Shown: positions 15,178 through 45,569, numbered from the stretch's first letter. The stretch is 64,000 nt of DNA from Micavibrio sp. (GCA_040376705.1 JBEIQE010000001.1:58193-122192), one strand, 5' to 3'. Program-made: numbers and translations. Notes: generated by a model from the letters alone, not told the origin.

Positions 15178-15303
15178 TGAGTTGGCCCACTTCCTGCAAA
15201 GCCTGTGATGAGCCCAAAAGGCTCCTATTGAGTATTAACAGGCCGGACCCGTTCTGACAAAGCGAAAAGCTGCAGAACCCCAGCCTTGAAGGGTAGGGAT
15301 AAC

Positions 15304-15699
15304 ATGGACCTCAACGGATTAGCGTTGTTCCAGCAAATGGAACAAAAAATGCACTGGCTTTCGGCCCGTCAGACTGTTCTGTCGGAAAACATCGCCAATG
15401 CCGATACCCCGTACTATCAGGCACGCGACCTCAAGCCGTTTGCTGCTGAAATGGCCAACGCCATGCCGGTTGTGCGCACCAATGTGAGCCATATCTCGGG
15501 CGGCAACGCCTCAACCGTGCCGGTCGTGGCGCGCGACCGCAACTTCATCGAGATCAGCCCTGATGGCAATCAGGTGTCGCTCGAAGACCAGCTGACCAAG
15601 GTTGCCGACACCGGCATGGAATACCAGATGCTCACCAATCTGTACCGCAAGCAGCTGAGCATGATCAAAACCGCCCTTGGGCGTAACGGTTCGGCATAA
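15304..15699 (+). CDS. flgB: Flagellar basal-body rod protein FlgB
   Basis: VLSENIANADTPYYQARDL is the rod N-terminal motif. The ATG at 15304 has an aggga RBS. An alternative TTG start at 15286 is given in the ORF track. Confidence 0.85.
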   Translation: MDLNGLALFQQMEQKMHWLSARQTVLSENIANADTPYYQARDLKPFAAEMANAMPVVRTNVSHISGGNASTVPVVARDRNFIEISPDGNQVSLEDQLTKVADTGMEYQMLTNLYRKQLSMIKTALGRNGSA

Positions 15700-15713
15700 G
15701 GGGAGGACGCATC

Positions 15714-16130
15714 ATGAGCAACGATCTCGTAAATTCCCTCTCCATCTCATCCTCGGGTATGAAGGCGCAGAGCCTGCGTATGCGGGTGATTTCAGAGAAT
15801 ATCGCCAACGCCAACTCAACCGGCCTGACGCCGGGTGATATGCCCTACCGCCGCCAGGTGGTGAGCTTTGAGAACGAGCTGGACCGCGCTACCGGCGCCA
15901 ATATGGTCAAGGTGAGCGAAGTGGGTAAGGACCCCTCGCAGTTCCAGCGCAGGTTCATGCCCGGTCACCCAAGTGCTGATGCTGATGGCTATGTGATGAT
16001 GCCGAACGTCAATACCCTGATTGAGACCATGGATATGCGTGAGGCGCAGCGCAGCTACGAAGCGAATTTGAATGTTATCGAAGTTTCGCGTATGATGATC
16101 ATGCGCACTATCGATATGCTGAGAGCTTAA
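15714..16130 (+). CDS. flgC: Flagellar basal-body rod protein FlgC
   Basis: MRVISENIANANSTG and the C-terminal EMVNMI-like region NVNTLIETMDMREAQRSYEANLNVIEVSRMM are present. Confidence 0.9.
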   Translation: MSNDLVNSLSISSSGMKAQSLRMRVISENIANANSTGLTPGDMPYRRQVVSFENELDRATGANMVKVSEVGKDPSQFQRRFMPGHPSADADGYVMMPNVNTLIETMDMREAQRSYEANLNVIEVSRMMIMRTIDMLRA

Positions 16131-16144
16131 GGGAGGGCTGACAC

Positions 16145-16450
16145 ATGGTAAACATGAACCAGATTGCAGCCGCCGCTTACGGTGCTACCTCCAAGCTGCC
16201 AACCGCTGCCGGTGAGGGCGAAGCCCTGGGCGGCTCGAGCTTTGCCGATCTGGTCTCTTCAGCCCTTGATGACGCGATTGGCAGCCAGAAGGCCGCCGAG
16301 CAGATCTCGCGCGATGCCGTTATCGGTAAGGCCGATATCAATGATGTGATCCTCGCCGTACAGAACGCCGATGTGGTGCTGAATACCGTTGTCGCCATCC
16401 GCGACAAGGTAGTAAACGCCTATCAGGACATCCTGAGGATGGCCATTTAA
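16145..16450 (+). CDS. fliE: Flagellar hook-basal body protein FliE
   Basis: 101 aa, with the C-terminal FliE motif NTVVAIRDKVVNAYQDILRM. It follows flgC. Confidence 0.75.
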   Translation: MVNMNQIAAAAYGATSKLPTAAGEGEALGGSSFADLVSSALDDAIGSQKAAEQISRDAVIGKADINDVILAVQNADVVLNTVVAIRDKVVNAYQDILRMAI

Positions 16451-16492: not shown

Positions 16493-16771
16493 ATGACTGA
16501 AGCGGATATCATCCAAATCACCCGCGACGCGATCTGGCTGCTGCTGGTCGTGTGCTCGCCGCTTCTTATTATCGCCATGGTGGTGGGTTTCGTTATCTCG
16601 CTCATTCAGGCGCTGACGCAAATTCAGGAAGCGACTATCGCTTTCGTGCCTAAAATCATCATCATGTTCCTCTCGCTCATGTTTTTGCTGCCGTTCATGA
16701 CGCAAAAGATGATCGACTTCGGCAACCGCCTCTCACCGATGATTATTCAGGTTGGTGCCTCACAAGAGTAG
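16493..16771 (+). CDS. fliQ: Flagellar biosynthesis protein FliQ
   Basis: 92 aa with 2 TM. LLIIAMVVGFVISLIQALTQIQEATIAFVPKI is canonical FliQ. Confidence 0.9.
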   Translation: MTEADIIQITRDAIWLLLVVCSPLLIIAMVVGFVISLIQALTQIQEATIAFVPKIIIMFLSLMFLLPFMTQKMIDFGNRLSPMIIQVGASQE

Positions 16772-18299
16772 TGCCTGCAGGCAGGGTCTTCTCCCAAGCC
16801 GAGAGCGCTTTTTCTAGACGCTCAGCCTCAGCCGGATTGGCGAGGTAGAGGCTTACTGTATTGTGAGCTACCACAACGCTATCCCGATTAAAGCTAAATT
16901 CCCCTACTTTGCTCCAGCTGGCAGGTATCTGGTTGGTGAACCAAGGATCGTAAAGAATGAAGAGGCTAACCCCGTGGCGCGTAGCATAATCGGCCAGTGC
17001 CGCCTGATTCCATTTGCTGCCAAAGGCGCGTAGCTGTCTGACCTCCTCAGAGCCAAGGCCAAAAATATCATGCACCTGGTAGGGGTTTTGCCAACTTAGG
17101 TAGCCAATGTCATTCGCACCAACCGGGCCTTGCCAGAAGTTTTTTATCAGGCGCGTGTATTGCACCTGCTGCCAATAGATATCCTGACTGGCGTAGGGCA
17201 TTTTTGCTGTTGTCAGTAAACTAGCGTAAAAACAAAGCATGAATGCAAAGGCCCAGATGCAGCGCGAAGCAGGGCTGAACTTTATTGTCAGTATAACTGG
17301 GCGCAGGGTGTAGAGAAGCGCTATGAAGCCAAAGGCAAGTAGATAGCTATGATAGCGGTCACTCCAGATAACTCGCCCCCCCAGTATATGGGCAAGAATG
17401 CAAAGCATGGCCAGCAGAGCAATACGGTTTCGGTAAATCACCATCGTGATTGACAGGAAAACCAGTAAGATAATCAAAATGGATGACTGCGGATGCAGGA
17501 GGTTGAGCACGACACGCTCAAGAAAGACCTGAAACGGTTCGGCACCATTAATCGCGTCGGTTTTTATAAGAACCGAGCCCGCTACAAGAGGTAGGCCAAG
17601 TGAGTACAGATAAGCTGCATGTGCCAGCTGGATGGCTGTTTCTGTGGCGCCCACCAGCACGGCTACCAGTCTGTAACGCGTCGTCAACAGCCATAACAGG
17701 GTAAGGCCGAACAGCGCTATGCCTTCGTAGCGGATCATGGGCATAAGAATAAGCGCCGCCCAGAACCACTTGGGCAGAGGTTTATTCTCATTTAGATCGA
17801 TCAGTGCTGAGAGTACAGCCAACACGGTAGTAATATGCAGGCTGTGTTCCATGCCCAGCAGCAGCATGGTATAAATGTTGGTGGCCAGAGCAAAAAAGGC
17901 TACTAGCCAGCCAGTCGCATATGTTGGGTAAAGGTTGGTGAGGTTCAGCTGGCCAGAGATGCGGCACAGCAGCCACAGGCTGATGGCCGCAGGCACCAGG
18001 TTGAGAAACAGTGGTGCCAGCAGAAAATCAGCAAATGGCACCAGCAACCACGGATAGATTATTGATGAAGAGGCTGCCGCCGGAATGCCTGCCGTCGTAC
18101 CGTATTGGCCCGGCAAGAGGCTGGCGATAGCCAAATGAATATAGGTATCGTCTATCGGATAGGTGAAATGTCCCTCGGTCATATACAGGCTGCACGCCAG
18201 AAAAATGGCGATGATCAGCCCAGAGAGGGCAAGGGTTTGGGCATAAATACGCGGTGATGTACTTGAGTAAACCATATGCTTAACTTCGCCAGTGCTCAT
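16743..18299 (-). CDS. Multi-pass membrane protein with C-terminal soluble domain, paralog A (GT-C-like?)
   Basis: 518 aa. About 10 TM helices are followed by a roughly 180-aa C-terminal domain. A DD motif after the first TM (FTYPIDDTYIHL) is present. It is highly similar to the adjacent paralog B. It is antisense to the fliQ/fliR operon, and its 3' end overlaps the fliQ 3' end. Confidence 0.6.
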   Translation of the reverse strand: MSTGEVKHMVYSSTSPRIYAQTLALSGLIIAIFLACSLYMTEGHFTYPIDDTYIHLAIASLLPGQYGTTAGIPAAASSSIIYPWLLVPFADFLLAPLFLNLVPAAISLWLLCRISGQLNLTNLYPTYATGWLVAFFALATNIYTMLLLGMEHSLHITTVLAVLSALIDLNENKPLPKWFWAALILMPMIRYEGIALFGLTLLWLLTTRYRLVAVLVGATETAIQLAHAAYLYSLGLPLVAGSVLIKTDAINGAEPFQVFLERVVLNLLHPQSSILIILLVFLSITMVIYRNRIALLAMLCILAHILGGRVIWSDRYHSYLLAFGFIALLYTLRPVILTIKFSPASRCIWAFAFMLCFYASLLTTAKMPYASQDIYWQQVQYTRLIKNFWQGPVGANDIGYLSWQNPYQVHDIFGLGSEEVRQLRAFGSKWNQAALADYATRHGVSLFILYDPWFTNQIPASWSKVGEFSFNRDSVVVAHNTVSLYLANPAEAERLEKALSAWEKTLPAGTTLVRHQPE

Positions 18300-19843
18300 T
18301 TATATTGATGCCTTATAAGTGTTGTGCCGGCTGGCAGCGTCTTCTGCCATGCCATGAGGGCTTTTTCAAGCCGCTCGGCCTCAGCTGGATTGGCGAGATA
18401 AAGACTTACATAATTGTAGGCAACATTAACGTGTGGCCGGTTGAAGCTGAAATCTGCAACCTTGACCCAGCTGTCAGGCAGCTGTCCTGTAAACCAGGGG
18501 TCATAAATAATAAACAGGCTTAGATTATATCTGTTTGCATAGTCGTCCAGCTCTGCCGGATCCCAGCGATTACCATGCACGCGCAGCTGTCGCACTTCCT
18601 CAGAGCCGAGGCCGTAAATATCGTAAATCGGATAGGGGCTTTGCCAGCTTAGATAACCTATGTCGTTTGCACCAACTGGGTCTTGCCAAAAATCGCGTAC
18701 CAGCCGCGTGAATTGTACCTGCTGTAGATAAATATCCTGACTGGCATAAGGGGTTTTAAGCGTTGTCCAGAAGCTGCTGTGATAACTGGCAACAAAAACA
18801 ATCAGCCACAGTAGCCGGGAAATTGCATTGAACTCTATGCGAGCGATAGTTGGGCGCAGCAAATACATCAATACGATGAAGCTGAACGCGAGCAGATAGC
18901 TTTGGTAACGATCGCCCCATACAATTTTTCCCCCAATAAAATGAGCAATAATGCAGATAAACGCCAGTGCCACGATGCGATTGGCATGTTTGCCTGGCGC
19001 GAACAGCAGAAGTGCTGAGATAATAAGTAATATCCAGCTTCGTGGCTGAATCAGGTTATTGCGGATACGATCAAGAATACTGATGATTGGAGTGTCTATG
19101 TTGTTTACGCCGGTTTTTATCAGAATTGAGGCCGCTACCATGGGCAAGCCAGATGAATGCATATAAGCGGCGTGAATAAGGTGGACGCCCATCTCTATCC
19201 CGCCAACTATTAGGGCTGACATCCTGTATTGTGTGGTGAGCAGCCAGAGCAATGTAATGCCGAACATCGCAAATCCTTCGTAACGGATCATCGGCATCAG
19301 GATGAGTGCTGCCCAGAACCATTTGGGCAGTGGCTTCTTGTCATTCAGGTCGATCAGGCCGGAGAGTACAGCCAGAACAGCTGTAATATGCAGGCTGTGC
19401 TCCATCCCCAGCAGCGGCATACTGTAAAGGTTGCCCGCCAAACCAAGCAGCAAAATTATAGGGGCTGTTGCCCACGCGGGATAAAGAGTGATGAGGTTAA
19501 GCTGGGCCGAGATGCGGCAGAGCAGCCATAGGCTGGTTGCAAGTGCCAGCAGGTTAAGTACAAGTGGGGCAAACACCAAGTCGGCAAAGGGTGCCAGAAG
19601 CCACGGATATATAAGTGAGGATGAGGCTGCTGCCGGAATACCTGCCGTTGTGCCATATTGCCCCGGCAAGAGGCTGGCGATGGCCAGATGGATATAGGCA
19701 TCGTCAACCGCATAAGTGAAATGCCCGTCAGTCAGGTACAGGCTGCAACCCACAAGAACGGCAATAACCAGGCCCGAGAGGGCAAGCGTTTGGGCGTAAA
19801 TACGGGCAGAAGGCATGACGGCACATATAGCTGAGAGCGCCAT
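18296..19843 (-). CDS. Multi-pass membrane protein with C-terminal soluble domain, paralog B (GT-C-like?)
   Basis: 515 aa. It aligns along its full length with paralog A (FTYAVDDAYIHLAIASLLPGQYGTTAGIPAAASS...ANPAEAERLEKAL). Confidence 0.6.
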   Translation of the reverse strand: MALSAICAVMPSARIYAQTLALSGLVIAVLVGCSLYLTDGHFTYAVDDAYIHLAIASLLPGQYGTTAGIPAAASSSLIYPWLLAPFADLVFAPLVLNLLALATSLWLLCRISAQLNLITLYPAWATAPIILLLGLAGNLYSMPLLGMEHSLHITAVLAVLSGLIDLNDKKPLPKWFWAALILMPMIRYEGFAMFGITLLWLLTTQYRMSALIVGGIEMGVHLIHAAYMHSSGLPMVAASILIKTGVNNIDTPIISILDRIRNNLIQPRSWILLIISALLLFAPGKHANRIVALAFICIIAHFIGGKIVWGDRYQSYLLAFSFIVLMYLLRPTIARIEFNAISRLLWLIVFVASYHSSFWTTLKTPYASQDIYLQQVQFTRLVRDFWQDPVGANDIGYLSWQSPYPIYDIYGLGSEEVRQLRVHGNRWDPAELDDYANRYNLSLFIIYDPWFTGQLPDSWVKVADFSFNRPHVNVAYNYVSLYLANPAEAERLEKALMAWQKTLPAGTTLIRHQYK

Positions 19844-19861
19844 ATTGCGCTATCCTAAGTT

Positions 19862-20638
19862 ATGCCTGAGTCGGTACTGCAAGAGCTGCTCACAACCAAT
19901 GTCTTCGCGTGGATGCTAATCTTCACGCGGGTGGGCTCCGCTTTTATCGTTTTGCCGGGTGTTGGCGAGGCGTTTGTGCCGTCGCGCATTCGTCTGCTGT
20001 TCGCGCTTACGGTCAGTGCGCTGCTGGTGCCGGTAATTGGCCCCAAGTTACCTGCCATGCCAGCACAGGTGCTCGACCTGCTGGCACTGATTGCGGGTGA
20101 AGCATTCTACGGCCTGTTCATTGGTATTGTGGCACGGCTCATCATGTCCACAGTTGAAACTGCGGGTATGATCATCGCCATGCAGATATCGCTTTCCAAC
20201 GCGTCGGTTTTCAACCCCGCCATGGCAGCGCAAAGCTCGCTCACCTCGGCGCTTTTGGGCGTAGCTGCGCTGGCGCTGATGTTCGCGGCTGATTTGCACC
20301 ACTTGCTGCTCTGGGCGGTGGCGGATAGTTATACGGTATTCACTCCCGGCACCTTCCCGCAAATGGGCGATCATGCCACCACTTATGCAAGGTTACTGGG
20401 GCAGAGCTTTGGTGTGGCCACGCAGCTTTCGGCGCCGTTTTTGGTGCTAGGTCTTGTTTTTTATCTCGGCCTTGGCCTGCTGGCGCGCCTCATGCCGCAG
20501 TTGCAGATCTTCTTCATCGCCATTCCAGCGCAGATTTATCTCGGGCTTATCATTTTGGGCTTAACCCTCTCCACCATGATGATGGTGTGGCTGAACTACG
20601 CCCGCTTTACAATCAACGCTTTGATGGGGGTCGAATAA
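19862..20638 (+). CDS. fliR: Flagellar biosynthesis protein FliR
   Basis: 258 aa, 6-7 TM. The FliR N-terminal region is FAWMLIFTRVGSAFIVLPGVGE. Confidence 0.85.
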   Translation: MPESVLQELLTTNVFAWMLIFTRVGSAFIVLPGVGEAFVPSRIRLLFALTVSALLVPVIGPKLPAMPAQVLDLLALIAGEAFYGLFIGIVARLIMSTVETAGMIIAMQISLSNASVFNPAMAAQSSLTSALLGVAALALMFAADLHHLLLWAVADSYTVFTPGTFPQMGDHATTYARLLGQSFGVATQLSAPFLVLGLVFYLGLGLLARLMPQLQIFFIAIPAQIYLGLIILGLTLSTMMMVWLNYARFTINALMGVE

Positions 20639-20639
20639 G

Positions 20640-21731
20640 ATGTCCGAAGGCGAAGATGACTCCAGTAAAACGGAAGAGCCCTCCCAAAAAAAGCTAGAAG
20701 ACGCACGAAAAAAGGGCGAGACGGTCCTTTCCCGTGAAATCTCCCACTGGTTCATGATTTTGGCTGGCATGATGTTCATCATGCTCATCGCCGGGCCGCT
20801 GATGCGCGATCTGGGGCAGGCGCTGCTGCCGTTCATCACACGGCCACATGATTTGCCGGTCAGCACTATGGGCGAGATTGGCGCTGTGCTGAGCATCATG
20901 CTCAAGGCCACCATCATTGCCCTCTTGCTGCCGTTTTTGGCCTTCATCATCGGTGCGATTGCAGGCCCCATGCTGCAGGTGGGCCCCATGTGGTCGCCTG
21001 ACAGTATGATGCCCAAGCTTGAGCGTGTTTCGCTGATCGCGGGTATTGGCCGTATGTTCTCCAAGCGCAATCTGGTTGAGTTTATCAAGGGTCTGCTCAA
21101 GCTCACGATTGTCGCGATTGTGGTGATCTGGAGCGCATGGCCTTCTACGCCCACCATCGAGCATAGTATCGACCTGAGCCTTGTCGCCATGATGCTGCTG
21201 GTGAAAGAGATCAGCATGGATATTCTGGTCAGTGTGCTGGTGGTGATGTTCTGTATTGCCGCCGCCGACTATCTGGCTCAGCGTTTCATGTTCATGTCGC
21301 GCATGCGCATGAGCCGCTCGGAAATGAAGGAAGAATACAAACAGAGCGAAGGTGACCCGATCATCAAGCAGCGTCTGCGCCAGTTGCGTATGGAGCGTGC
21401 GCGCCAGCGCATGATGGCCTCTGTCCCCACGGCCGACGTTGTTATTACAAACCCTGAGCATTACGCGGTTGCTCTTAAATACAACCCGCCCGAGGATGCC
21501 GCACCTATTGTTGTGGCCATGGGTATGGACAATATCGCCCAGAAAATTAAGGAAGTCGCGCGCGAGCATGATATCCCGGTTGTCGAGAACCCGCCATTGG
21601 CCCGTGCGCTGTATGCGACTGCCGATATTGACCGGCAGATTCCCGGCGAGCACTACCGTGCGGTGGCCGAAATCATCAGCTATGTCTTCAAGCTCAAGAA
21701 CAAGATTATTAAACCCCAGCCAAAGAAGTAA
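20640..21731 (+). CDS. flhB: Flagellar biosynthesis protein FlhB
   Basis: 363 aa with 4 TM. An NPxH autocleavage site is present as NPEH (VVITNPEHYAVAL). The C-terminal domain is conserved. Confidence 0.9.
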   Translation: MSEGEDDSSKTEEPSQKKLEDARKKGETVLSREISHWFMILAGMMFIMLIAGPLMRDLGQALLPFITRPHDLPVSTMGEIGAVLSIMLKATIIALLLPFLAFIIGAIAGPMLQVGPMWSPDSMMPKLERVSLIAGIGRMFSKRNLVEFIKGLLKLTIVAIVVIWSAWPSTPTIEHSIDLSLVAMMLLVKEISMDILVSVLVVMFCIAAADYLAQRFMFMSRMRMSRSEMKEEYKQSEGDPIIKQRLRQLRMERARQRMMASVPTADVVITNPEHYAVALKYNPPEDAAPIVVAMGMDNIAQKIKEVAREHDIPVVENPPLARALYATADIDRQIPGEHYRAVAEIISYVFKLKNKIIKPQPKK

Positions 21732-34048: not shown

Positions 34049-35512
34049 TTAGTTAGGCTTGGTGAACTCATAAATCGCGGTTATGCCCGTGCGATAGCGC
34101 TCATGAATGGTATATCCGGCAGATAGCAGGCCATTTTTGATATCCATATCGTTATACCAGTCATCCGCAAATACGCCCCAAAGCGCGCCGGAGGTATGGG
34201 CGATTTCAGCAATCGCAGCTGGCCTTGCAGTACCACAGCTTGGCGCTGTTATGCGGCTATGCACCTGTGCAGTCCATTGAGTTTTAAGGCCGACGATATC
34301 AACCAGTTTAAAGCGGGTGCTAGCATGCGCAATGTAACCGGCATCATGCACCAGCAGAGCGTTATTTGCTGGAATATGCTGGTTCGCCCATGTAATAGCG
34401 CTTTTATTGTCATCTCCACGGCGCAGTACATGCGGTGTGATGGCAAAGGTAAGGCTGCAGATAATACCAATCGCGCAAACTAGCAGACTGCTGTGCTGAA
34501 TGTTTTTAGTGGCCTTTGGGCTGGTAGCCATAACAGTCAGGAAGCAGAAAATCCATGCAGGGATCAGTATGGGGCTGTAACGGCCGGTATAGAAATTGAG
34601 CAGTAATGCCGAGGGAAAAATAAGGCCATAGGTAATCAAGAAGGCTGTTGTAAAAACAATTGAGCAGATAAAAAGTTTCTGTCGGCTCGGGAAAAACAGG
34701 AACAGGCAGATAGGCATGCTGATGAGCATCAGTTCAATCAGCCCCTTGAGGCTGATACCTGCTTTTTGTAATAGCGGCAGGCAGCTTTGCGCATAGAACA
34801 TCGACTTGGCGGTCCATGTCTGCGGTAGCCACAGACCAGTTTGTGCATGCACAAACAATACTGGCGGTAGCGCTGCCGCCAGCCCCAACAGGCCCATAAA
34901 TATGGGGGCAGGGAGTTGCATAACCTTATGCTGCCTCAGCTCATATGCCTTAAACAGAAAAGCCGGAATAGCCAGTGCCGCCAGCTCGATGCGCACATGG
35001 ACAGCAAGGCCGCACAAGGCCGCCAGCACAAAGGCGCTGCTGGTACGTTTATCCATAAGTAAAACCAGGAGCCACAGGCTGGTGCCCAGAGCGAGGCCGG
35101 TTTCGAGGCCGTTGAGCAGGTGTAAAGGCATGATGCCGACCAGCAGGAACATCGCCAGCGCATAGGGGGCAGCTTTGCCAAGCTTGAGCTGCTGCGTTAC
35201 CGCAAAGGCAGCTGCAGCATAAACCCAGCAACCAAGTATCGCGGCACAGAGCAGGGCAGGCTCGGTAGGCATGACTCTGGAGAAGATAGCAACCACCAGC
35301 AGGTGGATAGTACTGGTTGATCCGCTGATGGATGGCGTGCCGTAAAGTGGATCGACGGTGGTGCCTTGTAGCAGGAGGAAGGCATTACGGCCTGTTATAT
35401 AAGCATCATCCAGAAAGAAAGCTGGATGAATCAGGCCTGCAAAGGCCAGTGCCATAGCGGCTAATGCGCTTAGAGCGATAGCTGTTTGCATGCTGCACAG
35501 GGATAATTTCAT
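34049..35512 (-). CDS. Multi-pass membrane protein with C-terminal soluble domain, paralog C (same family as 16743-19843)
   Basis: PAFFLDDAYITGRNAFLL and the C-terminal DAGYIAHASTRFKLVDIVGLKT align with paralogs A and B. The ORF track runs to 35635. The likely start is the internal Met (MKLSL/MQTAIAL), near 35512-35491. Confidence 0.55.
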   Translation of the reverse strand: MKLSLCSMQTAIALSALAAMALAFAGLIHPAFFLDDAYITGRNAFLLLQGTTVDPLYGTPSISGSTSTIHLLVVAIFSRVMPTEPALLCAAILGCWVYAAAAFAVTQQLKLGKAAPYALAMFLLVGIMPLHLLNGLETGLALGTSLWLLVLLMDKRTSSAFVLAALCGLAVHVRIELAALAIPAFLFKAYELRQHKVMQLPAPIFMGLLGLAAALPPVLFVHAQTGLWLPQTWTAKSMFYAQSCLPLLQKAGISLKGLIELMLISMPICLFLFFPSRQKLFICSIVFTTAFLITYGLIFPSALLLNFYTGRYSPILIPAWIFCFLTVMATSPKATKNIQHSSLLVCAIGIICSLTFAITPHVLRRGDDNKSAITWANQHIPANNALLVHDAGYIAHASTRFKLVDIVGLKTQWTAQVHSRITAPSCGTARPAAIAEIAHTSGALWGVFADDWYNDMDIKNGLLSAGYTIHERYRTGITAIYEFTKPN

Positions 35513-45495: not shown

Positions 45496-45569
45496 TGGGG
45501 GATCGTCTAACGGTAGGACCACGGACTCTGACTCCGTTTGTCTAGGTTCGAATCCTAGTCCCCCAGCCA
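45496..45569 (+). tRNA. tRNA-Gln (anticodon CUG), CCA-encoded
   Basis: Manual fold: acceptor TGGGGGA/TCCCCCA; D-arm with GG; anticodon stem ACGGA/TCCGT with loop cTCTGac; T-arm CTAGG-TTCGAAT-CCTAG; discriminator G; CCA. Confidence 0.85.

Follow-up and report, generated by a model that had tools for sequence, protein, structure and literature searches.

The GT-C superfamily comprises polytopic glycosyltransferases that depend on lipid-phosphate-sugars and have 13 transmembrane (TM) helices, a long first extracytoplasmic loop with an invariant acidic motif right after TM1, and conserved basic residues on the outer face, to which ArnT, PglB and AglB add a C-terminal periplasmic domain. Some proteins of this fold, such as PIG-U/GAB1, are non-catalytic. 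ArnT and RgtA-D (GT83, PMT_2) are bacterial inner-membrane members that act on lipid A and the LPS core; their active site and their C-terminal domain are both periplasmic. Flagellin is exported by way of the type III channel, and the known systems (Maf/FlmG type) glycosylate it in the cytoplasm; Maf/PseE, FlmG and FgtA are soluble cytoplasmic glycosyltransferases that modify flagellin ahead of its export. Opposite-strand genes in or abutting the flagellar export-apparatus genes are found in Listeria, where the flagellar excludon (anti0677/mogR) involves overlapping sense and antisense transcription (PMC4179725).

Here we describe two paralogous genes, ORF A and ORF B, which lie in a flagellar cluster within a stretch of 64,000 nucleotides from Micavibrio sp. 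(GCA_040376705.1 JBEIQE010000001.1:58193-122192; hereafter the window). Their closest known kind is the GT-C superfamily, with which they share the polytopic architecture, the first loop and its acidic motif, the basic residues on the outer face and the C-terminal domain, whereas they have 11 TM helices and no sequence match in Pfam, NCBIfam or the PDB. An assignment as oligosaccharyltransferases (PglB/AglB/STT3, GT66) was rejected, as the WWDxG motif is absent and the helices number 11 and not 13. ArnT and RgtA-D resemble ORF A and ORF B in membrane location, predicted periplasmic active site and C-terminal domain. One member of the family is named 'Glycosyltransferase RgtA/B/C/D-like domain-containing protein' in UniRef, and PAP2-type (LpxF-like) genes stand at equivalent antisense positions in relatives. 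In contrast, PMT_2 and PMT matched neither ORF A, ORF B nor four relatives (E<=1), ArnT was not the best structural match, and the donor-synthesis genes of Rgt/Arn systems are lacking nearby; neither the PMT_2/PMT HMMs nor a link to Und-P-sugar synthesis thus places the pair in GT83. The UniRef label was itself set aside as evidence, hmmscan having given no PMT_2 match. Compared with the soluble flagellin glycosylation enzymes, ORF A and ORF B are integral membrane proteins whose conserved residues are predicted to be periplasmic, and neither Pfam nor NCBIfam reported any similarity to the Maf/PseE, FlmG or FgtA families. The locus resembles the Listeria excludon in that opposite-strand genes lie within or abut export-apparatus genes, with overlap of transcription implied, but the Listeria system encodes a motility repressor and not membrane enzymes, and the present host is an alphaproteobacterium in which the geometry is known from the genes alone.

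An antisense gene pair between fliQ and fliR

Table 1. Features of the locus and of the remote homologue ORF C (positions counted from the first nucleotide of the window)
Feature	Position	Strand	Remarks
flgB, flgC, fliE	15286..16450	+	upstream of fliQ; orthologues are Flg_bb_rod and FliE in L001, L086 and L092
fliQ	16493..16771	+	PF01313, 3.4e-27; final 29 nt overlap the ORF A 3' end, convergent
ORF A	16743..18299	-	518 aa; predicted GT-C-fold glycosyltransferase; downstream member of the B-A pair
C-terminal periplasmic alpha/beta domain of ORF A (model), residues ~390-518	16746..17132	-	ORF B counterpart at 18299-18685
D50-D51 codons of ORF A	18147..18152	-	proposed catalytic acidic pair, first periplasmic loop; ORF B counterpart at 19700-19705
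ORF B	18296..19843	-	515 aa; paralogue of ORF A; upstream member of the B-A pair
Spacer between ORF B and fliR starts (divergent)	19844..19861	.	18 nt
fliR	19862..20638	+	PF01311, 1.9e-56; downstream of the antisense pair
flhB	20640-21731	+	3' of fliR; PF01312 match in orthologous loci
ORF C	34049..35512	-	separate unannotated family; remote homologue of ORF A and ORF B, same architecture

The genes flgB, flgC, fliE, fliQ, fliR and flhB form the ancestral contiguous cluster. In the window fliQ is split from fliR by two paralogues on the opposite strand, as stated in the original prediction; coordinates, strands and protein lengths all agreed (Table 1), and the two proteins align over 502 aa with 66% identity and no gaps. 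A repeat search found the two genes as a 1553-nt tandem duplication. The TGA stop codon of ORF B and the ATG start codon of ORF A share an ATGA overlap, and the ORF B start codon at 19843 has a Shine-Dalgarno sequence (AGGA) 9 nt to its 5' side. The 3' ends of ORF A and fliQ were also found to overlap as predicted, by 29 nt. At the other end the ORF B/fliR spacer is so short that the promoter of either gene must sit within the other. A promoter scan gave no sigma-70-like site within this spacer and found six such sites against 5.5 expected, which amounts to chance; alphaproteobacterial flagellar promoters fall outside this type of scan.

ORF A and ORF B are real, functional genes under selection: comparison with a strain of 98% identity gave dN/dS values of 0.12 and 0.20, and the two paralogues compared with each other gave 0.17, their dS being saturated at ~1.5. 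Identity between them is 80% in the first extracytoplasmic loop (EL1) and 69% in TM2-7, falls to 45% in EL4 and 46% in TM8-11, and is 74% in the C-terminal region. Since the differences are thus concentrated in the EL4 and TM8-11 module and not in the putatively catalytic N-terminal module (69-80%), the two proteins probably differ in substrate specificity or work one after the other, and they may form a heterodimer comparable to Pmt1-Pmt2 or EmbA-EmbB.

Predicted fold and conserved residues

The AF2 model (pLDDT 89.6) places the N-terminus inside and has 11 TM helices, which upholds the polytopic topology put forward originally and raises its count of about 10. A soluble C-terminal part is also present, although in the model it measures ~150 aa, against the ~180 aa predicted, and consists of a long helix (367-389) followed by an alpha/beta domain of ~130 aa, for which a fold search returned weak, generic alpha/beta matches only. 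The DD motif noted after TM1 corresponds to D50 D51 in ORF A and D47 D48 in ORF B and is invariant in 20 homologues; in the model D50 and D51 stand 10 residues past TM1 (16-40), in the first periplasmic loop. All invariant polar residues in the alignment of these 20 sequences map to periplasmic helix ends or loops of the model, and ORF B keeps every family-invariant residue.

The best 18 Foldseek matches were GT-C proteins (STT3/PglB/AglB, ALG9 and AftA), and the structural neighbours, at 6-15% aligned sequence identity, included ALG3, GPI-MT-I/PIG-M, Pmt4, ALG12, ALG6, AftB, AglB, ArnT, PimE and PglB. The proteins show the polytopic fold, the conserved N-terminal TM module and the long first extracytoplasmic loop with juxtamembrane helices of the superfamily, as well as conserved acidic residues in that loop (D50 and D51), for which a catalytic role is predicted. 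Together with the invariant DD pair, these matches bear out the GT-C reading of the original prediction, which had also called for comparison with GT-C and YfhO models; the support came from fold and not from Pfam sequence models. Pfam-A gave no match at E<=1 for ORF A, ORF B, ORF C, P0004, P0011, P0020 or P0022, and X90 was likewise unmatched at E<=0.01; the Pfam GT-C HMMs (PMT, PMT_2, STT3, ALG3, Glyco_transf_22, GT87, YfhO and others) gave no significant match, NCBIfam no relevant one at E<=1, and a PDB profile search none at E<=10. The model thereby gives a confident fold assignment of ORF A and ORF B as predicted GT-C-fold membrane glycosyltransferases, while in the absence of a sequence-level tie to a characterised GT-C family their activity, donor and acceptor are all read from the fold.

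PIG-U/GAB1 was also among the structural matches, and the pair could be envisaged as a non-catalytic GT-C-like scaffold or transporter, in the manner of PIG-U/GAB1 in the GPI transamidase. We regard this as extremely unlikely, given that the EL1 acidic pair and the charged residues of the periplasmic face are invariant in the 20 sequences, a conservation that extends to the remote ORF C family, and that active transferases form the majority of the best structural matches.

A large undescribed family and its remote sister

A word-indexed search returned 20 homologues and suggested a rare family, but an exhaustive profile search and a genome scan identified this as an artefact of the index. With a cut-off of E<=1e-3 the profile search found 12,185 representatives of 50%-identity clusters, and with one of E<=1e-30 it found 3,722, these matches being full length, and the genome scan found 485 family loci in many phyla; one match was archaeal in an otherwise bacterial family. 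The family shares the motifs DDxYIH, SSS, G[ML]EH, RxEG, K, RYE, NDxG and DxxGL. It is thus large and unnamed, without a Pfam, NCBIfam or CAZy-type description. Clustering of the ORFs around 80 other family loci revealed no conserved neighbours, a Pfam scan of 135 immediate neighbours found no family in more than three (GT2, UbiA, S15 and others) and hence no operon partner, and tblastn detected no flagellar genes within 10 kb of the family members at L002-L081.

ORF C had been taken for a third paralogue. Homology was upheld but is remote, as hhalign joined the two families with a probability of 99.4% (E 4e-21, 406 columns, 17% identity), whereas close paralogy was contradicted by the A/B family HMM, which did not find ORF C at E<=10, and by BLAST (E 0.4). 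The ORF C family (79 matches) is likewise unannotated and has the same architecture, with DDxYI, SS, GxE, RxE, K, RY, DxGY and DxxGL aligned between the two families, the last two in the C-terminal domain. Unlike the A/B pair, ORF C has a non-flagellar context, flanked by genes for VIT1 and a nitroreductase.

Composition and the question of recent insertion

The original prediction noted that the pair looks AT-richer than its surroundings, took this to suggest horizontal insertion, and allowed for a function in flagellin or envelope glycosylation or in a flagellar sheath. ORF A and ORF B are indeed AT-richer than the immediate flanks, in both GC (0.50-0.51 vs 0.55-0.56) and GC3 (0.545-0.572 vs 0.69-0.72, a deficit of 0.12-0.17 relative to the adjacent flagellar genes), but against the 65 long ORFs of the window (GC3 0.623 +/- 0.069) they lie only 0.7-1.1 sd low. 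In the two related loci with a GT-C gene at the flagellar cluster the bias is absent or slight, with GC3 of 0.609 in L082 (flanks 0.58-0.66) and of 0.642 in L090 (flanks 0.68-0.77). Apart from the internal tandem duplication, no flanking direct or inverted repeats and no mobile-element signatures were found at the pair, and no tRNA lies nearby, the Rfam search of the window having found just one tRNA, at 45496. Homologue and metagenome searches found no close copies outside the lineage; the metagenome scan gave no match with ORF A as query and one weak match (26% identity) with an alignment of ORF A, ORF B and P0003. Composition, repeats, tRNA or mobility genes and near-identical copies elsewhere thus all fail to mark the pair as a genomic island.

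While the GT-C fold, the lower GC3 and the variable occupancy of the slot among relatives would fit a recently acquired flagellin or sheath enzyme, GC3 departs from that of the window's genes by no more than about 1 sd, the dS between the paralogues is saturated, no repeats or mobile genes adjoin the pair, and the flagellar-cluster copies, which form a clade with 99/100 bootstrap support, co-diverge with the flagellar proteins. Furthermore, the predicted active site is periplasmic, whereas known flagellin glycosylation is cytoplasmic. Recent insertion is not supported by these data, and the combined proposal appears very unlikely.

The fliE-fliQ-fliR junctions among relatives

The taxonomic placement of the lineage follows from named relatives of its FliR, at ~50% identity, which belong to Azospirillaceae, Rhodospirillaceae, Inquilinus and Fodinicurvata. 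In the outgroups L091 and L092 fliQ and fliR are contiguous and the slot is empty, so that the statement that the two genes are normally adjacent holds there; other relatives carry a GT-C gene or different cargo. L090 (FliR 84% identical) has one orthologue of 508 aa at the same junction, overlapping fliQ by 32 nt, and L082 has a single GT-C copy, of 41% identity, between fliE and fliQ. Self matches set aside, L086 (FliR 86%) is the nearest relative in its flagellar proteins; its junction carries a 147-aa ORF and no GT-C gene. Genes for PAP2_3 membrane phosphatase-like proteins occupy the equivalent slot in L088 and L089, with a methyltransferase also among the antisense cargo of L089, and in L091 an LpxF-like PAP2 gene lies antisense 3' of flhB. 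An insertion common to all relatives, part of what the original prediction would have taken as refuting it, was thus not observed: some have it, one is without it and others hold different cargo.

In a neighbour-joining tree of 95 family members, built from simple distances of which a few to outgroups were undefined, bootstrap support was 100 for ORF A with ORF B, 94 on addition of X90 and 99 on addition of P0003. The flagellar-cluster copies of the three lineages (window, L090 and L082) form a single clade whose branching order agrees with the identities of the flagellar proteins. Its members are always antisense, tail-to-tail with the preceding flagellar gene and head-to-head with the following one, from which they are 18-82 nt apart. 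As judged by these comparisons, ORF A and ORF B are long-standing residents of the flagellar cluster, as opposed to foreign genes inserted recently. A subclade of the family has been inherited along with the flgB-flhB cluster of an uncultured Rhodospirillales-like lineage, and its copy duplicated in the lineage of the window.

Long residence could also be explained if the fliE-fliQ and fliQ-fliR boundaries merely tolerate insertions, the GT-C genes having a general envelope role and being kept in place by inertia. The slot is indeed variable, being empty (L091, L092) or holding the 147-aa ORF (L086), PAP2_3 (L088, L089), the methyltransferase (L089) or one to two GT-C genes (L090, L082 and the window), and in 80 other genomes the members of the family lack flagellar neighbours and conserved partners. 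The lack of a GT-C gene at the junction in L086 further indicates that a flagellar role is not required. Against neutrality, the genes have stayed in place through divergence to 38-46% protein identity in three lineages, the antisense tail overlap has been retained (29 nt in the window, 32 nt in L090), and the gap of 18-82 nt between the start codon and the following flagellar gene forces a shared regulatory region. We therefore regard neutral residence as possible, if somewhat unlikely.

The same geometry raises the prospect of an excludon-like switch, in which the function would lie in the antisense placement as such. A B-A transcript would run into fliQ, fliE and flgCB, read-through from flgB-fliQ in the direction of fliR-flhB would be antisense to ORF A and ORF B, and mutual interference would couple expression of the export gate and envelope modification, maybe exclusively; such a switch is compatible with an enzymatic role. 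All junction cargo in six lineages is antisense to the flagellar genes, the overlapping 3' ends leave no space for a terminator, ORF B stands just 18 nt from fliR, and Listeria offers a precedent (PMC4179725). However, at most ~5 independent insertions are involved, for which the probability of a uniform orientation by chance is ~0.03 as a raw value uncorrected for ascertainment, the arrangement is seen here in gene geometry, and sigma-70-like sites occur at chance level. We judge a switch of this kind to be quite unlikely.

Proposed activity and acceptor

Taking fold, conservation and genomic history together, we consider it rather probable that ORF A and ORF B are functional GT-C tandem paralogues which transfer sugars in the periplasm, have long resided in the flagellar cluster and may act on an envelope or periplasmic acceptor rather than on flagellin. 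Following the fold and the conserved residues, a polyprenyl-phosphate-linked donor would give up its sugar on the periplasmic side of the inner membrane. Chemistry may be carried out by the invariant Asp pair of the first periplasmic loop together with E151/H152, R190/E192, K246 and R315/Y316 at periplasmic helix ends, and the sugar would then be passed to a periplasm-exposed acceptor. No genes for donor synthesis (GT2/GtrB-like or GtrA-like) were found in the window or next to the copies of relatives.

Direct glycosylation of flagellin by ORF A or ORF B is unlikely, since the modelled active-site residues face the periplasm and the known systems are cytoplasmic. PAP2_3 genes in the slot (L088, L089), the LpxF-like PAP2 gene of L091 and the RgtA/B/C/D-like UniRef name are hints toward a lipid or envelope acceptor, and weakly favour an envelope glycolipid or glycan (such as lipid A or LPS core), or else a periplasmic protein exported by Sec, over flagellin. 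A more specialised arrangement could be envisaged, in which ORF A, ORF B and their L090 and L082 orthologues constitute a periplasmic glycosylation module dedicated to the flagellum, the GT-C heterodimer modifying either the envelope around the base of the flagellum or a flagellar part that is exposed to the periplasm (a rod, P-ring, stator or scaffold protein), with excludon-like coupling to fliQ/fliR/flhB and with PAP2_3 and methyltransferase genes as alternative solutions in sister lineages; this we hold to be improbable.

Implications

Current understanding would stand unchanged unless a flagellar phenotype were shown. For annotation, a previously undescribed family can now be given a GT-C fold, a motif set and a remotely related sister family. 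The flagellar-cluster subclade provides the only conserved genomic context of the family and thus the best available lead to its function, and the recurrence of antisense cargo (GT-C, PAP2_3 and methyltransferase genes) at the fliE-fliQ-fliR junctions in one alphaproteobacterial lineage offers a setting in which antisense or bidirectional control of the flagellar export-gate genes could be tested.

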